NCBI GenBank assembly: GCA_963803185.1
Contig: CAWDMF010000013.1
Location: 12,067 to 76,066 of the forward strand
Origin: an uncultured Gammaproteobacteria bacterium
GTDB taxonomy: Bacteria; Pseudomonadota; Gammaproteobacteria; SZUA-229
Length of the DNA: 64,000 nt
Reading direction: 5' to 3'
A program made the translations under genes and the position numbers. Shown here in pieces: positions 14,381 to 53,599 of this stretch; position 1 is the first letter of the stretch, and the number at the start of each line of letters is the position of its first letter. The notes beneath the pieces were generated by a model. It was not told the DNA's origin, made no database searches, and worked only from the letters and a program-made list of their open reading frames with translations.

Positions 14381-14519
14381 AGTCCACAGATGGACGCAAA
14401 TGAACGCAAATATAAAACCTGGTATGGATCTGTGTATTTGGCATTCATAAGGTGTTAATCAAGTGGGTTTGGTATTACAAAGATTTTTCTTTGCGTTCAT
14501 TTGCGTTCATCTGTGGACA
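14381..14519. repeat. family-1 palindromic element (arms agtccacagatggacgcaaatgaacgcaaat / atttgcgttcatttgcgttcatctgtggac)
   Basis: about 30-bp inverted arms containing tandem GAACGCAAAT decamers around 78-bp spacer. Confidence 0.8.
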
Positions 14520-22796: not shown

Positions 22797-23037
22797 TTTT
22801 GCCGCGAAAAACGAAAAGAACGCGAAAGACGCAATAAAAGCTTATTTAGTCCACAGATGAACGCAAATGAACGCAAATCGAAAACTAGAGGATTTGTAAG
22901 GACTAAATCGTTTGATTTTTACAGGTGGTGCTAAAAAAGATTTAGATTTTACAAAAGGTTTATTTGCGTTCATTTGCGTTCATCTGTGGACAATATTTCT
23001 TTTGTTTTTCGCGCACTTTGCGTTTTTCGCGGCAAAA
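22797..23037. repeat. composite family-1 palindromic element: inner GAACGCAAAT-type arms (22848-22991) nested inside outer inverted repeat (gccgcgaaaaacg / cgtttttcgcggc)
   Basis: agtccacagatgaacgcaaatgaacgcaaat ... atttgcgttcatttgcgttcatctgtggac plus outer 13+ bp IR. Confidence 0.8.
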
Positions 23038-27030: not shown

Positions 27031-27843
27031 ATGACAGACGTCCTTGATAAGAAAACCAGAACCACAAACACCTTACCCGATGTTCAGAACAGTGAGGACA
27101 CCCGTGCGATTGCGATTAATAAAGTAGGCATTAAGGATATTCGTCATCCGGTACAGGTAAAAGACCGTACCGGGCAGATTCAACATACCATCGCAAACTT
27201 CAACATGTACGTTGATTTGCCACATGAATTCAAAGGCACCCATATGTCGCGATTTGTTGAAATTCTCAACAATCACGACTGGGAAATCACCGTTGACTCG
27301 TTCAAAATCATGTTAACCGAGATGACCAGCCTGCTGGATGCTGAAGTAGGTCATATTGAAATGAGCTTCTATTTCTTTATTAACAAAACCGCCCCCGCTT
27401 CCGGGGTAAAAAGTTTGCTGGATTACGAAGTCAGTTTTATTGGCGAACGTAAAAATAACGAAAATAAAATCAACATAAAAGTTGTAGTGCCGGTCACCAG
27501 CTTATGTCCTTGCTCGAAAAAAATATCAGACCGCGGTGCTCACAATCAACGCTCTCATGTCACTGTTGATGTCGAAACAGAAGATTTTATCTGGGTAGAA
27601 GAAATTATTGACCTGGTTGAAGCACAGGCTTCCTGTGAATTATACGGCTTATTAAAACGCCCGGACGAAAAAATTGTTACCGAACGTGCCTACGATAATC
27701 CAAAATTTGTCGAAGACATGGTGCGCGACATTGCCCATCAATTAAACATTGATAAACGCATACTTTCCTATACCGTAGAATCAGAAAATTTTGAATCCAT
27801 TCATAACCATTCGGCTTATGCGCTGATTGAGAAAACACGATAG
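27031..27843 (+). CDS. folE2: GTP cyclohydrolase FolE2 (type IB, COG1469)
   Basis: 270 aa, [21 protein letters not shown] conserved FolE2/MptA motif. Confidence 0.8.
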
Positions 27844-28448
27844 ACGTAGCTAATACAAAAAAAACATATGTGTTAAGCCCGCTTTTTTATCAGCTGGCAA
27901 GCAATGCTACGATAAACCATTGCTAATGCCTGATGCATTGCTTTTGCATAACGGGCAAACAAATAGCGCTGCTCACAAGGAAAGCTGATACCCCATTGGT
28001 GTCCAGGCTCATCAGCTTATACTTCATCGACGAGTAAAGTGGCACTCTCAGGCATATGCCTGGCGCCAACAGAAAGCACAACAGAAAGGGAAAGCTCAGT
28101 GCCACGTGATGTTCGGCGTGGCAGGTCTCGCAGCACAACCGCAGCAAGCCCTGTTCCAGGTAGCTGCATTTCAGTAGTCGCCGATCCATACCCGCTGGAC
28201 GTAACCGGGCAAATCCTGGATATGCCATAAAAAGGTCGCGGGCAGTGTACCGCTGGCATTTTAATCTTATGTTGCTGCCGTACCAGTACTCTTGCAAAGT
28301 GATGCTAACCTGCTCTACTTCAGGCTTCCGGGCTTTCGCCTTTCGGGCCAACCATTGGTTGTTCAAAATCGCTGCCGACGATTTTGTCGCGGCAATGACA
28401 GCTAAGCGGTAAAGCAGTGCGGGAATTCCTTTTTTATTCGCTGCCGGT

Positions 28449-28878
28449 TTACCTGTGGCAGTCCCGGCAGCTGTCATGCGGGCCCGTGGGGAGGCTCTGC
28501 TCATGCCGATGTTTATGGCAGCCGGTGCAAAGGCCATGGAATGCTTGCTGCGCGTTGCGCACCGGTGGTTCAGCGTCGTTCACCGAATCGGGCTCGGCTT
28601 TCCTGATATTGGCGATGCTGAAATACCTGGCCTGGTGGCAGGCTATAACAGCTGCGAACAGGCTCGTCCTTAGTGCGCAACGTATGGTGGCAGGTGACGC
28701 AGCGTACACCTTCGAGGTCACTGTGGCGCTGGTGGGCGAAGGTTACCGGACCGAACTTGGGCGTCAGGGTGATCTCGGCCTTTTCGGGCGGGATAGCGTC
28801 AGTCGCGGTCACCAGCGCCGGCGCAAGCCCAAAAAATAGAACGAACCAGCGCAACCGATTTGGGGCAGCTGGCCGCAT
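28449..28878 (-). pseudogene. c3-type tetraheme cytochrome c with Sec signal peptide, interrupted by an apparent 1-nt insertion near 28640 inside the second heme motif (CYSCH)
   Basis: Frame A (28878->28570): MRPAAPNRLRWFVLFFGLAPALVTA...VTFAHQRHSDLEGVRCVTCHH...RSCYS; frame B (->28449): ...AFHGLCTGCHKHRH...DSCRDCHR; deleting one C restores CYSCH giving four CxxCH. Confidence 0.5.
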
Positions 28879-28894
28879 CTGCACGCAGCTCGGG

Positions 28895-30277
28895 CTAGAA
28901 GTAATAACGAACACGGAATTCCAGCTTGTAGTTGTTGGGCTTTTCTCCCCACTCGGTGAGCTGATCGCCAATAGGCGCAATCAGTCGTAGCCGTAGGTCC
29001 AGGTTATCGACGCCTTCGTAGTTCAGCTCAGGCGAAACCGAGTAGCTGTTATCCAGCAAGTTGTAGAGCACCTGGAAACCCGGCGTGAAATAAAGGATGT
29101 TGTAGGGCTCTCTCCACCAGGCACGCAGGTGAAAATACTGGCGCATGGGATTGGGTTTGGTGAATGGACCCTTGTCGACGTCTTCGTCGAGGGGCAGTCC
29201 GGCCAGCAGGTCCGGATCGCCGGCGTCCCAGGCGCGGTGAACGCATTCGTAAAACTGCCGCTGATCCTGTTCCCGGTTTCCGGCGCCGTTGTAATAATAT
29301 TCAGCGATCCAGGTGACATCGTTCTCGGTTCGGTAGCGCAGCCCGAGTAGAGAGCTGATTTTGTCATCTGGCGCCTCCCGTGTGAATTTGCAATCCGGGG
29401 TTATGTTGTGCAGCGACACATCGGTGAGGTAAGCGAGTTCGCCGTGGACCGCAAAATTGGTGGTGATGTTACTGGCAAAATCCATGCCGTAGCGTGCTGT
29501 CTTGCTGCCTTCACTGAGGAACAGGAAATCGATGTCAGTGTTCTGGTACAGCAGGTAAAGCTTGGCCGCGTAGTTGGTGAAGCCTTCCTTGCCGAAGTCA
29601 TTATTGATGCTGCCGCGGTTCGGCAGTACCAGTGGCGTTAAGGCAACGGTCTTCAGCCGGCCGCCGAAGGTCTTTATATAATCGAAGCCGGCGATCCAGA
29701 AGCCCTCGCGCGCAAGATCGGGATTACCGGCGTCCTTGGCCCGTTCAACAAATGCGACGGGGTTCCACGCGTAGCCGGTGCCCCAGCGATAGGCCTTCTT
29801 GCCCATGTCAAAGCTGAAGCCGGGATCAGGCTGCAGGTTCAGCAGGCCCTCGTACAATATGGTTTCGCCGCTTTCGTCGGTGTAATCCCAGGTCTTGCTG
29901 GTATGAGTGCGGAAAGACAGGGTGGTGATGCCCCGCCGGTAGCGACCATCGAGTTCGAGTACGGCCGGCAGGCGGGAGATGCTGTCGCGCGGCTGTTCGT
30001 CGAAGAACTGCAGCTGGTACAGCGCACCATCCTGGTTGCTCTGTGCATAATTCGGCTCGATCTCGGCGTAACCGCGCAGCACGAATGGTTTGGCCTCAAA
30101 TTTTTCGACGTCGAAGGTGAACTCGTCGGCACCCAGACCCGGCATCGACGTCACCACACAGGCGGTGGCAATCAAGACTCCTGCATGCCGACGGAGGCTA
30201 GCTCGTGTCAATAGCCCAGTCGCCCGCCCCCCTCTTTCCATACCGCTAAGAACCATGGGTGCTGGCAGTTGAGTCAC
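28895..30277 (-). CDS. outer-membrane beta-barrel protein (GTG start overlapping upstream stop; mature start probably internal after signal peptide)
   Basis: 460 aa, signal-like LIATACVVTSMPGLGA, alternating amphipathic strands rich in Y/W/G, C-terminal ...EFRVRYYF aromatic terminus typical of OM barrels. Confidence 0.55.
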   Translation of the reverse strand: MTQLPAPMVLSGMERGGRATGLLTRASLRRHAGVLIATACVVTSMPGLGADEFTFDVEKFEAKPFVLRGYAEIEPNYAQSNQDGALYQLQFFDEQPRDSISRLPAVLELDGRYRRGITTLSFRTHTSKTWDYTDESGETILYEGLLNLQPDPGFSFDMGKKAYRWGTGYAWNPVAFVERAKDAGNPDLAREGFWIAGFDYIKTFGGRLKTVALTPLVLPNRGSINNDFGKEGFTNYAAKLYLLYQNTDIDFLFLSEGSKTARYGMDFASNITTNFAVHGELAYLTDVSLHNITPDCKFTREAPDDKISSLLGLRYRTENDVTWIAEYYYNGAGNREQDQRQFYECVHRAWDAGDPDLLAGLPLDEDVDKGPFTKPNPMRQYFHLRAWWREPYNILYFTPGFQVLYNLLDNSYSVSPELNYEGVDNLDLRLRLIAPIGDQLTEWGEKPNNYKLEFRVRYYF

Positions 30278-31014
30278 CGCAGCTCCTTCACCTTCGGCAT
30301 GTAGTTGAGCGTGAACACCTCGTCCGGAAAATCGCGGGCCTGGACTTTTGCAAACAGCATGACCGCCTTGTAGCCCTTGTACAGAGGGCTGTCGGTCTCG
30401 AGCATGGAAGGCCGCCGGATACCGTCGCCGAAGTCCTTGATTTCGCTGTAACGGAGCCGCTTGATCAACAAACCGCTGGCAGCGAAAGCCTCAATCGACA
30501 GCGGTAGCAGGGAACTTTTATCCACCACCATAGCCAGGCGATCATAGGCCACGGAGCCCGTCCTGGCCTTCAGTGACAGCTTGTAGTTGTCAGCCACTTC
30601 CTCGATGGTCTCGACGTTGTATTCAGTGCTGAACTCCAGTCGCATCAAGTCGGAATTATTGAAGATGCCGCCAACGACCGATTGCAGGCTGGTGATGCGG
30701 ATCGGTTTGCCCACATCGGGGATGAACAGCCACATGTTGTCGCCACGGCGAAGGGTGGTGCGACCGGCGTCGGTGGACGGCTCCAGGAACAACGCAACCA
30801 TGCTGTCACGACCTTTTTTGGCGGTATATAAGACGAATTCCTTGCGCTTACCGTCCGGTTCAACATTGATGAGTTTGCGATACATCTCGTACGACTCGGG
30901 GGCCAGGTTGCGATCCACCTGTTGCAGAATCGACTGCCCGTCAACAGCGTGGACACTGGCGGCGGCGCACAGCAGGATCACTACAGCCAGCAAGATTGGT
31001 CGCCTCATGTTCAC
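30274..31014 (-). CDS. periplasmic LolA-like (outer membrane lipoprotein-sorting protein family) carrier protein
   Basis: 246 aa with signal peptide MNMRRPILLAVVILLCAAASVHA; size/composition and operon context with MacB-type ABC typical of LolA-like proteins. Confidence 0.4.
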   Translation of the reverse strand: MNMRRPILLAVVILLCAAASVHAVDGQSILQQVDRNLAPESYEMYRKLINVEPDGKRKEFVLYTAKKGRDSMVALFLEPSTDAGRTTLRRGDNMWLFIPDVGKPIRITSLQSVVGGIFNNSDLMRLEFSTEYNVETIEEVADNYKLSLKARTGSVAYDRLAMVVDKSSLLPLSIEAFAASGLLIKRLRYSEIKDFGDGIRRPSMLETDSPLYKGYKAVMLFAKVQARDFPDEVFTLNYMPKVKELR

Positions 31015-31409
31015 TCGCCCCTCAATTCCTTGGCGACATCTTCGACAGTGCCACTGCGGCGGACAAAGCGTACTTTGCGTGCAACCATGACGTCCTCCAT
31101 CTTGGGCCCGACCATACCGCCGACGAGCACTGAGACACCCTTGTCGGCGAGTGTGGTGGCTGCCGCCGGTCCGATGCCGAACTCGAGATCAAGGTGGGGA
31201 TTGGCAAGGACCTCGATGGCTTTACCGTTGATATCGTAGAGGTGGAAATAGGGCGAAATGCCTGACAGCTTGCTGATCGACGACGTCAGTTCGGCACCCT
31301 CTGCCGCTATAGCGAAGTTATCGGCTTTGTAGGCGTCGGCTTCTTCGGCCGCAAAGGTCGACGTCAGCGTAAGGGTGACTAATGCGAAAAAGGAAAGTAC
31401 TCTGATCAT
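31011..31409 (-). CDS. secreted NifX/NafY-like dinitrogenase FeMo-cofactor-binding domain protein
   Basis: Signal peptide MIRVLSFFALVTLTLTSTFA; APYFHLYD...GKAIEVLAN and FGIGPAAATTLADKGVSVLVGGMVGPKM match PF02579 consensus (apyfliyd / ggaGi.aa.lL...gvdvv.tg.iGp). Confidence 0.55.
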   Translation of the reverse strand: MIRVLSFFALVTLTLTSTFAAEEADAYKADNFAIAAEGAELTSSISKLSGISPYFHLYDINGKAIEVLANPHLDLEFGIGPAAATTLADKGVSVLVGGMVGPKMEDVMVARKVRFVRRSGTVEDVAKELRGE

Positions 31410-31468
31410 AATGTTTCTCCTGGTGAAGACACAAACTCGCCGCTATCCAGCATGTTCGTATCCGGGGT

Positions 31469-32905
31469 TCATACGTGCCTTAATGCCTTGATCGGGTTCA
31501 TCCGCGAGGCCTTCCAGGCGGGCTGTAAACTTGCCAGGACCGCGACGAGTATGGTCAGCAGCCCGGTGATAATGACATCGGAGGCGGATATTGAGGGTAC
31601 CAGGATGAGATTATCCTGGCGCCCGAAGGCGATAGTGAAGGTCATCCGGTTGGCGATCCCAATGGCAGCAAGGCTGATCGCGGTCCCGATCACCGTCCCG
31701 ACGAAACCAAGAAGGAAACCCTCGCTGACGAACAGCGCCAGGATCGTAGCAGGTTTTGTGCCAATGGCGGAGATGGTGCCAATCTCCCGGATGCGTTCAT
31801 ATACTGCCATGATTAACACGTTCATGACGCTGATCAATACCACAGAAATCAGGATAATCCGGATGAACAGGGTCATCAGGTCTATCATGTCAGCAATCTT
31901 GGAAAACGGCACGAATTTCTGCCAGGGGTGTATCTGAAAAATGGTCAGCCCACGGCGGTTTTTCAATTCAGCGACTTTGGCCTCGAGACTGGCGAGCGTA
32001 ATTTCCTGCATGCCGCGATCACGCAATCGGATCGCGATCTCACTGACCTCGGAAGGTTGTCCCCAGCCTCTTTCGCTGAACAGCTTGCGCGTTGCGGGCA
32101 AAAACTCGTCGGTATCAGTGAGCGGAACCGGTGGTTGCTCGGCCAGTGCCGCGTCTCGCTTCAATTTGAGGCTGTCAACGGGGGCTTCGGCCGGCGCCTC
32201 GGCATAACCAAGACCCGCAAGTAATTCCTGTTCGACCGCCTGTTCCTCTATGCGCAGGAGTTCGCGCGCGTCGTCGATATGGAGGTAGCCGTCTCGACCG
32301 CCCGGACCGGAGATACTCTCAAGGATGCCCTGTACCACAAAGGTCTTGCCATTGACCGAACCGTCCTTGTTGGTTGCCACCAGCACAACGGTATCACCCA
32401 CCTTGACTTTCATGCCGTTGGCGATGAGCTCCGGGACCTGGATTTTGCCTTTTTCCACCAGGGGTGAGGACGTGCCGCCGGCGAACACCCGCTGGGTGAC
32501 CTGTGGCACGGTGGCGACCTCGCGATCGGGGTAGACGCCGTTGAGTCGGATGCTGGTGGTGCTGGCGAAATTGCTGAACATGGCCATCAACTTGATCCGC
32601 GGCGACCACGCCTCGATCTCGTCGGTTTCGTCAAGGCTCTGGTAAAGCTTGACCAGCATTCGTGGCCGCATGTTGCGATCGACGGGCAGGCTTTCCATGG
32701 CACCGACATAACCGCGACGGTGAACCTGGAGGTGTCCCACCATGGAGTCGGTGAATTGCGATACCATCATGGTCTTGAACGAGCCGGCAACCGCGATAAA
32801 TAGTAACACGGCTACCAGGCCCACGGTGATCAGAAGCGAGGTCAGAATAGTGCGTCGCTTGTAGCGCAGCAGGTTGCGACCCGCGATCTTGAGTACGTCA
32901 TTCAT
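31469..32905 (-). CDS. ABC transporter permease, FtsX/MacB/LolCE-type with about 300-aa periplasmic domain (ORF extends to 33028 but probable start MNDVLKIAGRNLLRYKRR at 32905)
   Basis: N-terminal TM, large periplasmic domain, C-terminal 3 TM helices ending ...SLQPAWKASRMNPIKALRHV typical of FtsX family. Confidence 0.75.
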   Translation of the reverse strand: MNDVLKIAGRNLLRYKRRTILTSLLITVGLVAVLLFIAVAGSFKTMMVSQFTDSMVGHLQVHRRGYVGAMESLPVDRNMRPRMLVKLYQSLDETDEIEAWSPRIKLMAMFSNFASTTSIRLNGVYPDREVATVPQVTQRVFAGGTSSPLVEKGKIQVPELIANGMKVKVGDTVVLVATNKDGSVNGKTFVVQGILESISGPGGRDGYLHIDDARELLRIEEQAVEQELLAGLGYAEAPAEAPVDSLKLKRDAALAEQPPVPLTDTDEFLPATRKLFSERGWGQPSEVSEIAIRLRDRGMQEITLASLEAKVAELKNRRGLTIFQIHPWQKFVPFSKIADMIDLMTLFIRIILISVVLISVMNVLIMAVYERIREIGTISAIGTKPATILALFVSEGFLLGFVGTVIGTAISLAAIGIANRMTFTIAFGRQDNLILVPSISASDVIITGLLTILVAVLASLQPAWKASRMNPIKALRHV

Positions 32906-33602
32906 GGCTTGCACCCTCATCTTTTGTCTGCCGTCGCACATGGCCGTCCTCGAGTACGAAGGTCTCCTCAGCCTCGGCCATGATCTTGGGATCGTGCGTC
33001 GAGAACACGAAGGTGGTACCAAATTCATCCCGGAGTTGTCGCATCAGCCCGATGATCCGGAGGGCCGTTGAGCGATCGAGATTCGCGGTTGGCTCGTCGG
33101 CAAGCACCAGCCTGGGATTCGTCACCAGGGCGCGGGCCACGGCGACCCGCTGCTTCTGGCCACCGGACAGCTGATCGGGACGTTTATCGGCCTGGTCAGA
33201 GATACCCGCTGCGGCCAGCAGGCTAAGGATCCGCTCGCGGCGACGCTGCAGGGGCCATTTCTGCACCATGATCAGCGGGTATTCCACATTCTCGTATACC
33301 GTAAGCACAGGAATAAGATTGAAGTCCTGAAAGACGAAGCCGATGTTCTCTCCACGGAATACCGCTGCTGCGTGATGGTCGAGTGTCGATACGTCCGTGC
33401 CGCTGACGGTGAGGCGGCCATCGGTCGGTGGATCGAGGCAGCCGATCATGTTGAGCAGCGTACTCTTGCCGCTTCCGGAGGGCCCGACGAAGCAAACGAA
33501 TGATGCCGGCTCGATGCTAAAGTCGACGCCGCGAATCGCGTGGACCGTCACATCGCCGGTGCGGTAATCCTTAACCAGATTTTCTGCGGTCACCAGGCTC
33601 AT
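32898..33602 (-). CDS. ABC transporter ATP-binding protein (MacB/LolD-type)
   Basis: Walker A GPSGSGKSTLLN, signature LSGGQKQRVAVARAL, Walker B LVLADEPT, H-loop; 234 aa. Confidence 0.85.
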   Translation of the reverse strand: MSLVTAENLVKDYRTGDVTVHAIRGVDFSIEPASFVCFVGPSGSGKSTLLNMIGCLDPPTDGRLTVSGTDVSTLDHHAAAVFRGENIGFVFQDFNLIPVLTVYENVEYPLIMVQKWPLQRRRERILSLLAAAGISDQADKRPDQLSGGQKQRVAVARALVTNPRLVLADEPTANLDRSTALRIIGLMRQLRDEFGTTFVFSTHDPKIMAEAEETFVLEDGHVRRQTKDEGASHE

Positions 33603-33706
33603 TGCCTGTCTCTCCTGTCTATCTGCGCGTCAGCCTTTTTCCTGCCCGTGGATCCCGCCTGCGGAGGTGCAAAGTCCAGTATCTCATCCAGGGCCCTCAT
33701 TACCGG

Positions 33707-34357
33707 CTATTTCTTCAGCTTTAACGGGTGTAACTGCTTGAGCAAGCCGGGTTCAGGTTCTTCGTCGTGGAGGTAACCTGGCGGCGGATAGATGGTCTCA
33801 CAAGTCCCCTCTTTGACCTCGGCCAATTCCCGCTGCGTCATGCAGACGTCGTAATTGCCAGGGCCACCATCCAGCTTGCCGTATCCGGGTCCATCCCACA
33901 ATACGTCAAAATCGCCCTCTCCGCCATAGAGCTGGTCGTCACCCGGCGCGCCAAACAGCCAGTCGTCACCGGGGCCGCCGTAAATGATATCAACACCGCG
34001 CGCGCCAAACAGGGAGTCAATGCCGGGGCCACCGCACAGGATGTCGTCCCCTGCGTCGCCGTGGACGACGTCGTTGCCAGGACCGGCGACGATGACATCA
34101 TTTTCGTCGCTACCCAGTATCAGGTCATGACCGGTAGTGCCCACACAAGTGGCTTTCTCGCCATGACAGAGCGGCACTTCGCTCAGGCCTGGCGGAAGAT
34201 AGGGGCACTTGATTACAGTATGAGCGGTCGTGTAGTCGGGGAAGGCTTCCTTGGTCACTTCGGGGCCCGCCGCCGTGGACATCGCGGCTAACGCGACGCT
34301 GATCGCAACAGCGATTTCGAAAAGACAAGAAACTCGGGATGATGATAAAACGCACAT
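33707..34357 (-). CDS. secreted RTX-like calcium-binding beta-roll protein (hemolysin-type GGxGxD repeats) with N-terminal Sec signal and Cys-containing flanks
   Basis: tandem nonapeptides GGPGIDSLF GARGVDIIY GGPGDDWLF GAPGDDQLY GGEGDFDVL; N-terminal hydrophobic signal, no C-terminal T1SS-type signal evident. Confidence 0.6.
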   Translation of the reverse strand: MCVLSSSRVSCLFEIAVAISVALAAMSTAAGPEVTKEAFPDYTTAHTVIKCPYLPPGLSEVPLCHGEKATCVGTTGHDLILGSDENDVIVAGPGNDVVHGDAGDDILCGGPGIDSLFGARGVDIIYGGPGDDWLFGAPGDDQLYGGEGDFDVLWDGPGYGKLDGGPGNYDVCMTQRELAEVKEGTCETIYPPPGYLHDEEPEPGLLKQLHPLKLKK

Positions 34358-34708
34358 TTTTTTATTCTCCTAATGTCATTTTTATTATTGTCCTTACAGT
34401 TGTTAAGTATACTCCCACTTTTCTAACGACATCAACCCTTCGGCTTCATTCTTTTGCAAAATTCAACCAATGCTCATCAGCTTTATTGCTGGTCAACAAT
34501 TTGTCGTACGAATACCCGATGTGCAGCTGACAGAATTCACCGATGCATTAACGCACGGCGAGATATTGCTGATGGCCGATGTATCACTTTTCGTGTTGCT
34601 GAAATTGAAAATCTTGTTCATAAGCAGCATCCAGAAGCGGCAGTTAGTGGTATAAGCTGGACAATGGATGGTTTCGGTATTTAACCTGGAGATTTTAAAA
34701 TAGCCGGG

Positions 34709-36058
34709 TTAAATAACCAAAAAATAGCCTGAACCAACAGCAGCGCATGCAGCAATTACGGAAACAATACCCGCTTTATATCTAAACAGGGCAATAAACG
34801 CTGCCGCACCGATGAAAGCTGAAAACCACTCAAAGTGGCCATCAAAACCTTGCGGCCAAAGCACATGGTAAGCAAAAAAAGTGGCAAGATTAAGAATGAC
34901 ACCAACCACCGCTGCGGTTATGCCGGTTAACGGGGCCGTAAACTTAACATCATCTCTGGTCGCTTCAACAGCGGGACCACCTAACAAAATAAAAAGAAAA
35001 GAAGGTAAAAAAGTAAACAAGGTGGCAATGCCTGCGCCTGCCGCGCCAGCTAAAAGTAACGAGTCAGGTCCAAAAATTTCTTTTGTCCAGGCGCCAACAA
35101 AACCCACAAAAGCCACAACCATAATCAGCGGTCCGGGTGTGGTTTCACCCAGGGCCAGGCCATCAATCATCTGGCTTCCGGTTAGCCATTGATATTGCTC
35201 AACACCACCTTGATAAACATAAGGTAAAACCGCATAAGCACCACCAAAAGTCACCAGTGCGGCTTTAGTAAAAAACCAGCTCATTTGTGTAAGCGTGCCC
35301 TGCCAGCCGTAAGCATTGATCAACATGATCATTACCGCGCCAGCAATGAACAGACCTATCAAAGAAAAAACCAGAAACCGGCCCCACTTAAACTGTGCAT
35401 GTTCAGGTGCGGGTGTGTCGTCATCAATAATGGCAGGCCCGTATGTCTCCTTCGAGGCACCATGGCCTGCACCCGCTTTAAAATGCTCAGGCGAAACATA
35501 GGACCCTATATAGCCGATTAAACCTGCCGCTAATACAATGTAAGGAAAAGATATCTCAAAAGCAAAAATAGCAATGAAGGCCAGTACAGCCATGAGACGC
35601 AGCACATTATTTTTTAACGCCCTGGAACCAATGCGGTAAGCAGCAAAGACCACTATCGCGGTAACAGCTGGTTTAATGCCGTATAAAACACCTTCAACCA
35701 CCGGCACATCACCATAAACCAGGTAAATCCATGTCAGACCAATAAGAATAAAAAGTGACGGCAGCACAAATAAAACACCCGCAGCAATACCACCCCAGAC
35801 ACCATGCATTAACCAGCCGATATAAGTTGCCAGCTGCTGCGCTTCTGGTCCAGGCAGTACCATGGTGTAATTAAGAGCATGCAAAAAACGATGTTCAGAA
35901 ATCCACCGGCGCTTTTCTACCAGCTCCTGATGCATCATGCTTATCTGGCCCGCTGGTCCACCAAAACTGATAAATCCTAACTTAAGCCAGTACATAACGG
36001 CTTCGAAAAATGAAACGGGCTCAGGTTGCCCTGTTAATTCCTTTGTATTTGAAGCCAT
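34709..36058 (-). CDS. chrA: chromate ion transporter ChrA (CHR family, two-domain); ORF extends to GTG at 36112
   Basis: FISFGGPAGQISMM...LPGP and second-half FGGAYAVLPYV motifs. Confidence 0.8.
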   Translation of the reverse strand: MASNTKELTGQPEPVSFFEAVMYWLKLGFISFGGPAGQISMMHQELVEKRRWISEHRFLHALNYTMVLPGPEAQQLATYIGWLMHGVWGGIAAGVLFVLPSLFILIGLTWIYLVYGDVPVVEGVLYGIKPAVTAIVVFAAYRIGSRALKNNVLRLMAVLAFIAIFAFEISFPYIVLAAGLIGYIGSYVSPEHFKAGAGHGASKETYGPAIIDDDTPAPEHAQFKWGRFLVFSLIGLFIAGAVMIMLINAYGWQGTLTQMSWFFTKAALVTFGGAYAVLPYVYQGGVEQYQWLTGSQMIDGLALGETTPGPLIMVVAFVGFVGAWTKEIFGPDSLLLAGAAGAGIATLFTFLPSFLFILLGGPAVEATRDDVKFTAPLTGITAAVVGVILNLATFFAYHVLWPQGFDGHFEWFSAFIGAAAFIALFRYKAGIVSVIAACAAVGSGYFLVI

Positions 36059-36224
36059 TAGATTCACTCTGAAAAACAAGCCGTTATTGTACACAACAGG
36101 CAGTTGAGACACTATTTAAGGAAGAAATATATGATTAATCCGGGCATTGAAGTAAATAGTGCAGCCTAACTGTATAACGACACTTTATGCTCAGCGGCGG
36201 AGTGAAAATTCTTTATCATTCCTT

Positions 36225-36255
36225 CCGCAAATGAACGCAAATACACGCAAATAAT
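36225..36255. repeat. solo half-arm of family-1 element (ccgcaaatgaacgcaaatacacgcaaat)
   Basis: matches arm motif without a partner arm nearby. Confidence 0.5.
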
Positions 36256-36390
36256 AATCTTTTTAACAACCACAAAAGTTATTTTTCTATACTTAAGCCG
36301 AATTTAGCATGGCTATGCAATATCCGGCGTAAGCAGACAATAAATAGCACCATCATGATGCACTTCTGTTCCACAAATAATATCTAGAGA

Positions 36391-36700
36391 CATGGATCGG
36401 AAGCACCTTGCTGAGACCGTCAGCCACAGGGCAGGTGTTTTGCTCCTGCAAAACCTGCACTTCCACCGTCCGTGGTGGTCGGATGTGGCTGCCGAGCCCC
36501 CATGGATGGGTTTACGGCGTGTCTCAGCAAGGTGCTTACGGTTCATGTCGGTTGTAAACAATGCTTTTAAGCAGATACACTGGCACCGAGACATGAATTG
36601 TGTGTTACCGCCAAAGACACGCCGTAAACCCATCCATGGGGGCTCGAACCCCGCATCCATGCGTGATACGGTCTTTGGCGGTAACACGCAACCCATGCCT
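36391..36700. repeat. complex block of interleaved GC-rich inverted repeats (three or more overlapping hairpin pairs)
   Basis: catggatcggaagcaccttgctgagac / gtctcagcaaggtgcttacggttcatg; gagcccccatggatgggtttacggcgtgtc / gacacgccgtaaacccatccatgggggctc; tgtgttaccgccaaagac / gtctttggcggtaacacg. Confidence 0.7.
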
Positions 36701-36790
36701 CTCATATTTGTGAAACCGAAGTGCATCATGATGGTGCTATTTATAAATCAGACCCTGTCGCAGATATCAGGGTTAAAATATTTAATGATG

Positions 36791-47794: not shown

Positions 47795-47960
47795 TCCGCA
47801 AATGAACGCAAATAAAAAATTTACGAGTGTTTTTTAAAGTTATTTGCCTCTTGTATTTTAATCAAGCGATGCAGATGCATTTCATAAATTTATTAAAAGG
47901 CTTCACCTAGTAACGCAAATGCAATTCTATTTTTGTTTTTATTTGCGTTCATTTGCGGAC
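47795..47960. repeat. family-1 palindromic element between convergent genes
   Basis: tccgcaaatgaacgcaaat ... atttgcgttcatttgcggac. Confidence 0.75.
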
Positions 47961-53417: not shown

Positions 53418-53599
53418 GTCCGCAGATGAACGCAAATGAACGCAAATAATAACAAAACAGTAAAACTGTCATACTGGACGACAGTGAAAGATCTAACACT
53501 TTAATATGCCACCAAGGTTGCAAGATCCTTCACCGTCGTTCAGGATGACATAAAATTATATATTATTTTTTTTGCGTTCATTTGCGTTCAACCGTGGAC
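53418..53599. repeat. family-1 palindromic element
   Basis: gtccgcagatgaacgcaaatgaacgcaaat ... ttgcgttcatttgcgttcaaccgtggac. Confidence 0.8.

Follow-up and report, generated by a model that had tools for sequence, protein, structure and literature searches.

A horizontally acquired operon for putative envelope transport beside an ISCR-like transposase remnant in an uncultured gammaproteobacterium

Introduction

IS91 and ISCR elements have no terminal inverted repeats, generate no target duplications, and begin transposition at oriIS to end it at terIS (PMC13181058). In the IS91 family, termination fails in 1-14% of events and adjacent DNA is then co-mobilised (PMC13181058). Since terIS holds the transposase promoter, it lies 5' of the transposase gene and oriIS lies 3' of it (PMC13393415), so that DNA captured by read-through is expected upstream of the transposase gene. 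On a reference plasmid, floR precedes ISVsa3 in the same orientation. Here, we describe an island of about 6.6 kb in 64,000 nt of DNA from an uncultured Gammaproteobacteria bacterium (contig CAWDMF010000013.1, GenBank assembly GCA_963803185.1), in which a seven-gene operon stands beside the remnant of an ISCR2/ISVsa3-like transposase, next to the host gene folE2. The whole 64,000-nt stretch is called the window below, and coordinates of the operon are window positions.

The remnant is about 55% identical to ISVsa3 over residues 36-160 and, as with floR and ISVsa3, the cargo lies co-oriented on its 5' (terIS) side. Unlike the known cases, the DNA beside it is a 6-kb envelope-transport operon rather than a resistance gene, and the location is the chromosome of an uncultured marine gammaproteobacterium of about 43% guanine-plus-cytosine (GC) content; only the N-terminal third of the transposase is left, in frameshifted form, and oriIS is absent.

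The operon itself resembles several described systems. With LolCDE-LolA-LolB it has in common a type VII ATP-binding cassette (ABC) motor, composed of a LolD-like ATPase and a LolC/E-like permease, and a LolA-fold carrier, encoded together, while with MacAB-TolC it shares a permease that has the MacB periplasmic core domain and an FtsX domain. One of its periplasmic proteins contains the PF02579 domain of the NifX/NafY/orange-protein family. In Borrelia, the predicted BBJ23-29 export system combines a MacB-like ABC transporter, a LolA-like protein and an outer-membrane barrel in one cluster (PMC13078400). This is the nearest published analogy found for the cargo described here, both systems being predicted.

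Results

A block of foreign DNA has replaced host genes next to folE2

An earlier note on this DNA had described a GC-rich, probably horizontally acquired block in an AT-richer chromosome and had proposed GC and tetranucleotide profiles, as well as a comparison with relatives, as checks. Both parts of that description held when these analyses were run. In 1-kb bins, GC content was 0.548-0.594 throughout 28,001-34,000 and 0.339-0.484 in all remaining bins of the window, with an average of about 0.43 outside the 28-34 kb block. Bins of 100 bp showed GC falling from 0.63 to 0.34 near 34,300 at the right edge and rising gradually across 27,900-28,100 at the left edge. GC content at third codon positions (GC3) was 0.65-0.75 in the five large open reading frames (ORFs) of the island, compared to 0.41 ± 0.05 (maximum 0.51) in 44 host ORFs. 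The tetranucleotide profile was likewise non-uniform, with an L1 distance to the host of 0.49 for the island and 0.14 ± 0.017 for 51 host segments of the same length (z = 20). When tetranucleotide counts were normalized for base composition, the island correlated with the host at r = 0.69, and host segments at 0.91 ± 0.02 (minimum 0.83). The genes flanking the island are core housekeeping genes, namely panC, ffh, radA, ispA, dxs, queD and folE2 on one side and bamC, dapA, purF, proS and htpG on the other.

Relatives of the host were located through homologues of FolE2 and BamC; these and all other loci compared are numbered with the prefix L. The synteny of dxs-queD-folE2 and of bamC-dapA was kept among relatives, and the interval between the two groups was hypervariable. 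bamC immediately adjoined folE2 in L103, L110, L119 and L130, five unrelated genes separated the two in L003, and different sets did so in L004, L144 and L145. With at least six gene contents, the folE2-bamC interval (27,844-36,790 in the window; also L003, L004, L089, L090, L103, L118, L144 and L145) is a plasticity hot spot. Two relatives, L089 and L090, keep dapA-bamC-chrA and folE2 and are free of the island. Nucleotide identity to the window in these loci (and in L086 on the chrA side) was 86-88% for dapA-bamC-chrA and 92-95% for the folE2 end. From the folE2 stop to the equivalent of window position 34,470, L089 and L090 have only 1,685 bp, with a host-like GC content of 0.35-0.48, which code for a 4Fe-4S (Fer4_5) membrane protein of 329 amino acids and a second membrane protein of 167-182 amino acids. 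The window has no gene for the former, and residues 1-111 of the latter, as encoded in L089, were missing from the window in a tblastn search. The borders and what remains of the second gene are as follows.

27,857-27,867, no strand: left junction zone between host and foreign DNA; host homology past the folE2 stop (27,843) reaches 27,856 in L144, transposase-derived sequence starts at 27,868, and the same junction is present in L147
34,438-34,469, no strand: right junction zone; donor-type similarity stops at about 34,438 and host similarity (L086, L089, L090) starts at about 34,455-34,468
34,470-34,688, plus strand: 3' remnant of the host membrane-protein gene, comprising its last 71 codons with a 1-nt deletion seen in the DNA alignment; matched by residues 112-182 of the L089 protein (tblastn, E = 6e-19)

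Because the window keeps only a truncated, frameshifted stump of a gene that is intact in island-free relatives, the island-bearing state is, on this comparison, the derived one, in which about 1.7 kb of the host's own DNA gave way to about 6.6 kb of foreign sequence. Three independent lines of evidence, namely the foreign composition, the island-free relatives with the same flanks together with the gene remnant, and the copies of the block, at 84-92% nucleotide identity, in contigs with unrelated flanks (described below), identify the stretch from about 27,860 to about 34,450 as foreign DNA of about 6.6 kb that was horizontally acquired. The compositional edges from which the earlier note had drawn its borders are real, but the comparison with relatives places the true junctions at 27,857-27,867 and at 34,438 to about 34,455. 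Given the position of the latter, the AT-rich promoter region of the donor is to be counted as part of the island and lies inside its right border.

None of the features of a classical integrative island or integrative and conjugative element, which are a tyrosine or serine integrase, a tRNA or attachment-site target and flanking direct repeats, was found. Pfam and NCBIfam searches detected no integrase domain in any island ORF, the 64-kb window contained no tRNA and gave zero Rfam matches, and direct or inverted repeats at the island edges amounted to nothing beyond chance-level matches. The earlier note had likewise found no integrase, tRNA or direct repeats and had concluded that this is not a classical integrative element, but its inventory of the borders overlooked the transposase pseudogene at 27,868-28,222. 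It had also regarded the neighbouring genes as ordinary host genes. For chrA (34,709-36,112) this applies to the composition, which is host-like, but chrA is itself an accessory insertion in the slot and is missing from many relatives.

A dead ISCR2/ISVsa3-like transposase forms the left end of the island

The roughly 600 bp between the folE2 stop and the stop of the last operon gene, which encodes a cytochrome, have no counterpart in the other copies of the operon. They contain two features.

27,868-28,222, minus strand: ISCR2/ISVsa3-like (IS91-family) rolling-circle transposase pseudogene, truncated and frameshifted, covering residues from about 36 to 165 of about 497 (NCBIfam, tblastn, residue map)
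28,223-28,448, minus strand: degenerate 5' end of the transposase gene and presumed upstream (terIS/promoter) region, with no homology to the operon copies L001, L002, L005, L006 and L146

The NCBIfam model NF052416 (ISCR_clade_Ia) matched at model positions 104-166 (E = 7.7e-11) and 68-96 (E = 2.4e-4), the two matches being collinear and in different minus-strand frames. When a stitched peptide of 101 amino acids was compared with plasmids by tblastn, it matched thousands of them at about 55% identity and 97% coverage, with E-values down to 2e-26, and these matches are annotated as 'IS91-like element ISVsa3 family transposase'. Relative to a 497-residue reference (L143), residues 36-88 corresponded to 28,222-28,094 and residues 97-160 to 28,073-27,882, with a 'KKAGLTH' motif in the third frame extending to 27,868. 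The IS91 zinc-binding domain PF14319 was found in 21 of 21 database homologues of the stitched fragment, some of which also had PF04986, and Pfam searches of the stop-masked, frame-broken translations did not detect the transposase domain. Homology ends at residue 165 or so, 24 bp from the folE2 stop. The catalytic HUH/Y2 domain (PF04986) and oriIS are gone, and the window holds no further transposase sequence beyond the remnant. IS91/ISCR elements insert with their oriIS end beside a target tetranucleotide of the GTTC/CTTG type, and this end and its junction are no longer present in the island.

Of the architecture that defines IS91/ISCR transposases, the fragment therefore retains the N-terminal zinc-binding (PF14319-type) part and lacks an intact catalytic domain, and the island borders are free of terminal inverted repeats and target-site duplications, as is usual for these elements. 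The gene is interrupted by a single in-frame stop and shifts frame at least three times. Judged from its sequence, the element is a dead remnant, and the fragment is a distinct member of the family, not ISCR2 itself. An ORF of 204 codons at 27,923-28,537 was considered as a gene and rejected as a read-through of this remnant.

The left border was also recovered in L147, a contig of 1,205 bp from a different sequencing run (Logan ERR11443744) that is 98.6% identical to window positions 27,759-28,956. It runs from the folE2 end through the junction, the transposase remnant with the same frames and the same truncation, and the cytochrome gene into the last part of the barrel gene. Compared with L147, the window has 8 bp missing at 28,336 in the transposase upstream region, which reflects a strain difference or a sequence error. 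Since an independent contig spans the left junction, an assembly chimera is excluded there, and the shared frames and truncation indicate that the transposase was dead before the strains of the window and of L147 diverged.

The operon and the transposase gene follow one another in the same orientation in the window, which is the geometry that read-through capture predicts. Co-oriented ISVsa3-type fragments were also found downstream of the core cassette of the operon (ATPase, permease, LolA-like protein and barrel) in 2 further loci of 80, and hint at a recurrent association of ISCR elements with this cassette.

L073, 8,397-8,603: ISVsa3-like fragment, residues 18-86, 1.5 kb after the barrel gene
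L014, 13,613-14,187: ISVsa3-like fragment, residues 261-454, 3.4 kb after the barrel gene

The operon encodes envelope and periplasmic proteins

As the earlier note had stated, the island has seven closely spaced or overlapping genes, all on the minus strand. The junctions are overlaps of 4-8 bp or short gaps, and the seventh gene, for cytochrome c3, carries a 1-nt insertion in the window. In order of transcription, the promoter-like element and the genes are as follows.

34,406-34,437, minus strand: donor-derived promoter-like element TTGATG-18-TATACT, conserved in the upstream regions of L005 and L006 (sigma-70 scan match 34,435-34,406)
33,707-34,357, minus strand: RTX-repeat protein (calcium-binding beta-roll), small and either secreted or periplasmic, 216 amino acids with signal peptide, first gene of the operon (Pfam HemolysinCabind, four stretches, E = 7.5e-31)
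32,898-33,602, minus strand: ABC ATPase of the LolD/MacB/DevA group (Pfam ABC_tran, E = 7e-34; TIGR02211 LolD, 212.6 bits)
31,469-32,905, minus strand: MacB/LolCE-type (type VII) ABC permease, 478 amino acids, overlapping the ATPase gene by 8 bp (Pfam MacB_PCD and FtsX; NCBIfam lolCE, E = 3.6e-25, well under the equivalog cut-off)
31,011-31,409, minus strand: NifX-family (Nitro_FeMo-Co, PF02579) periplasmic protein, 132 amino acids with signal peptide (Pfam, E = 1.3e-12)
30,274-31,014, minus strand: LolA-like periplasmic carrier (PF17131, E = 1.7e-38; nearest solved structure 3buu)
28,895-30,277, minus strand: predicted outer-membrane beta-barrel of 18 strands, 460 amino acids, putatively OprD/AlgE-like, in a family for which neither Pfam nor NCBIfam has a model
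28,449-28,914, minus strand: tetrahaem class III (c3-type) cytochrome c with signal peptide (Pfam Cytochrom_CIII, PF02085, 26.9 bits against a cut-off of 22.9)

The carrier scored 132.6 bits with PF17131, for which the cut-off is 30, and matched 3buu (NE2245, 'LolA superfamily protein') at E = 3e-28, placing it within the LolA-like family. Relatives of the NifX-like protein in the Protein Data Bank are MTH1175, TM1290-type proteins and the orange protein ORP, with 1rdu and 2wfb among the nearest structures.

The cytochrome gene has four CxxCH motifs in L001 and L147. In the window, an extra G at 28,643 splits the second motif and turns CYTCH into CYS-LPP, as seen in alignment with the intact genes of L001, L002, L005 and L006. 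Since the gene is intact in L147 (98.6% identical) and L146, the extra G is private to the window sequence, and may reflect a mutation that arose very recently or, equally well, an error in sequencing; an interpretation of the frameshift as decay after transfer was dropped on these grounds. The ratio of nonsynonymous to synonymous substitution rates (dN/dS) of the cargo genes was 0.07-0.25 in comparison with L005 and 0.22 in comparison with L146, and dN of the permease relative to L005 was 0.037. By this measure, the cargo genes are under purifying selection.

The operon departs from each of the systems that it resembles. Unlike LolCDE, it has a single permease gene, no LolB and no encoded lipoprotein substrate, its proteins score under the equivalog cut-offs (212.6 against 307.75 bits for TIGR02211 and 88.8 against 362.45 for TIGR02212), and it adds the 18-strand barrel, together with a NifX-family partner in the periplasm, an RTX protein and a cytochrome c3. 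In contrast to MacAB-TolC, it lacks the MacA membrane-fusion protein and a TolC-like duct, and has a LolA-like carrier and a porin-like barrel instead; no HlyD or membrane-fusion-protein domain was found in the island, nor was one a recurrent neighbour in 52-63 related loci. The Borrelia BBJ23-29 system has an Omp85/BamA-like barrel and tetratricopeptide-repeat chaperones, whereas the island has a putatively OprD/AlgE-like barrel with the NifX-like protein, the RTX protein and the cytochrome. Unlike members of the NifX/NafY family, the island protein is exported and has no nitrogenase context, and in Planctomycetota and Aegiribacteria its counterpart is fused to a LolA-like domain.

Copies of the operon and of its core cassette elsewhere

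Window positions 28,445-34,273 shared 78-85% nucleotide identity with operons in L001, L002, L005 and L006 and 92.5% with L146, and the flanks of all of them were unrelated to those of the window. Similarity to every copy stopped at 28,445-28,454, where the cytochrome gene has its stop codon. In the high-GC metagenome-assembled genomes of Gammaproteobacteria/Chromatiales L008, L009, L013, L017 and L018, the GC content of the operon equals that of its flanks, and this context looks native; the GC content of the operon exceeds that of the flanks by 0.06-0.07 in L005 and L006. A gammaproteobacterium of higher GC content was the probable donor.

The closest copy, L146 (RCNC010043421.1), and the island-free L089 and L090 belong to one metagenome series. 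L146 ends exactly at window position 28,445, the junction of operon and transposase, and a contig break of this kind is expected in assembly if repeated or variable DNA comes next.

The core cassette was present in at least 581 species-level genomes, from Chromatiales, Thiobacillus, Sulfurisoma, Sulfuricaulis, Gallionellales, Nitrospirota, Methylomirabilis, Desulfobacterota, Planctomycetota and others. The barrel family comprises 1,182 clusters at 50% identity from at least 581 species, and its members are annotated only as 'hypothetical protein'. A NifX-like gene lies between the permease and LolA-like genes in about one third of the loci, and 28 of 29 NifX-like homologues have an N-terminus resembling a signal peptide. 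The RTX gene is found upstream of the cassette only in a gammaproteobacterial subclade, where it is conserved, and the cytochrome gene only in the closest relatives. In five Planctomycetota/Aegiribacteria loci, the NifX-like and LolA-like domains are fused, with a signal peptide, in one protein of 351 amino acids, which argues that the two periplasmic proteins act together.

L049, 7,945-9,000: NifX-LolA fusion gene
L056, 2,366-3,421: NifX-LolA fusion gene
L063, 8,931-9,986: NifX-LolA fusion gene
L066, 2,253-3,308: NifX-LolA fusion gene
L083, 2,502-3,557: NifX-LolA fusion gene

Recurrences among 63 downstream and 52 upstream neighbouring genes of related loci were weak, and were limited to RTX genes, CpxP-like Metal_resist/LTXXQ genes and genes of two-component systems. 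In other lineages (L005-L084), 4 of 52 genes just upstream of the cassette encode periplasmic Metal_resist/LTXXQ proteins of the CpxP/Spy type, and three two-component sensor/regulator pairs and one multicopper oxidase gene also occur there, a weak hint at envelope or metal stress.

Repeats near the island

Between chrA and bamC, at 36,340-36,744, lies an element of about 405 bp resembling a miniature inverted-repeat transposable element. It has terminal inverted repeats of 40 nt that are 95% complementary and three nested internal inverted-repeat pairs, and does not match Rfam. Neither L089 nor L090 has the element; the closest relative, L085, has its edge, and L145 has a partial copy (90%) downstream of folE2. 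In addition, an intergenic repeat of about 35-43 bp, resembling repetitive extragenic palindromic sequences, has five copies in the window (36,224-36,266, 14,475-14,517, 22,960-22,990, 47,928-47,959 and 53,419-53,452), and related short repeats occur in the host relative L003.

Discussion

The comparisons above establish that the island is foreign and that it replaced host DNA, and they show what the transposase remnant is and where it lies. As to how the island arrived, we consider it reasonably probable that one-ended transposition of the ISCR/IS91 type brought a two-part block, consisting of operon and transposase, into the slot next to folE2, that a deletion accompanied or followed this step, and that the cargo is a Lol-like envelope pathway. 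The transposase was probably the vehicle, as its adjacency to the operon and its orientation suggest. In the donor, an ISCR element would have stood directly after the cytochrome gene. Rolling-circle transposition starting at oriIS, 3' of the transposase gene, would have missed terIS on the 5' side and copied the upstream operon as well, and the unit of operon and ISCR would then have inserted next to folE2. A deletion, at insertion or later, would have taken the 3' two-thirds of the transposase gene, oriIS and adjacent host DNA, leaving the island immobile and costing the host about 1.7 kb, that is, the 4Fe-4S membrane-protein gene and the 5' two-thirds of the small membrane-protein gene. A one-ended rolling-circle route of this kind would explain why integrase, tRNA, inverted repeats and target duplications are missing.

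Several observations weigh against this account. Among the loci compared, an intact unit of ISCR element and operon was found nowhere, and the closest copies of the operon (L001, L002, L005 and L006) have no downstream transposase. In L014, other genes lie in the 3.4 kb between cassette and transposase fragment. The replacement of host DNA requires an additional deletion step, and the right junction lacks an independent contig. Moreover, the oriIS side is deleted, and the ISCR2 terIS region aligned weakly, through short motifs only, with the 226 bp lying upstream of the remnant. As regards the cargo, our search of the literature found no characterisation of this cassette, and no conserved neighbour pointing to a substrate emerged from the 63 downstream and 52 upstream genes of related loci.

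The most serious alternative is that a larger incoming fragment, delivered by transformation, conjugation or transduction, recombined homologously or illegitimately in a plastic slot, the ISCR fragment being a passenger or an older relic. This would suit the interval, a hot spot of recombination in which relatives show at least six gene contents, and an event that was a replacement and not a clean insertion. It would also suit the transposase, whose heavy decay and truncation are shared by the two strains carrying it, and the closest operon copies elsewhere, which lack a transposase. We nevertheless judge it rather unlikely, as the remnant adjoins the operon exactly where homology to all other copies stops, is oriented as predicted for ISCR capture and belongs to an association of transposase and cassette seen again in L014 and L073, while the island has no flanking homology inside it to guide homologous recombination.

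Other explanations fare much worse. That the block is ancestral and was lost from relatives, its composition reflecting gene-specific constraints, would agree with the purifying selection on the operon and its presence in at least two strains, but a GC3 of 0.70 against 0.41, a GC-normalised tetranucleotide signature outside the host range, the truncated and frameshifted stump in place of which island-free relatives have intact genes, the direct adjacency of bamC and folE2 in more distant relatives and the transposase pseudogene attached to the block make this highly improbable, and we regard differential loss as effectively refuted. A high-GC contig wrongly joined into a low-GC genome during assembly or binning might be suspected from the uncultured source, the abrupt change in composition and the lack of a record in exact look-ups of four window proteins; with L147 spanning the left junction at 98.6% identity and the right border lying inside a recognisable host gene remnant instead of at a random break, there is scarcely any chance of such an artefact. 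Equally little can be said for an anti-phage defence island or prophage remnant. The site is a variable hot spot and the ABC ATPase matches ATPase components of defence systems in PADLOC, yet these matches reflect P-loop and LolE-TM similarities of a generic kind and are missing for five of the seven proteins. All seven are envelope or periplasmic proteins, and phage genes are lacking. The defence reading was rejected, its PADLOC matches being only generic.

With respect to the cargo, the protein families, the folds and the gene fusion make it possible, in our tentative view, that the operon encodes a Lol-like ATP-driven relay in which a type VII ABC motor passes a hydrophobic or cofactor-like ligand to the LolA-like/NifX-like pair and on to a dedicated barrel. 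A more specific proposal, that an exported cofactor-binding protein of the NifX family works in physical contact with a LolA-like carrier, a MacB-type motor and an 18-strand barrel, that these carry a redox cofactor, either metal-cluster-like or hydrophobic, to the outer membrane or across it in sulfur-, iron- and nitrogen-cycling bacteria, and that the system is passed between sediment Gammaproteobacteria by ISCR elements, is speculative and on present evidence unlikely. What is most novel in the cargo is the pairing of a NifX-like with a LolA-like protein in the periplasm, and the fusion gives a testable handle on what the system carries. The cassette is widespread and uncharacterised, and its barrel is without an assigned function or family model.

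Operons that are horizontally acquired and discordant in GC content are common. The mobility side of this island corresponds to known ISCR/IS91 gene capture, and is unusual only in its cargo and host. To our knowledge, nearly all documented cases of gene capture by ISCR elements concern clinical resistance genes. Here an ISCR/IS91-type element lies beside an operon other than a resistance operon, in the natural setting of an uncultured marine bacterium. The locus is a clean example, as it comes with an empty-site comparator, a gene scar and a separate contig across one junction, and it should be useful for the study of ISCR gene capture. If the proposed route is correct, ISCR capture would act on physiological operons in nature, outside the setting of antibiotic resistance.

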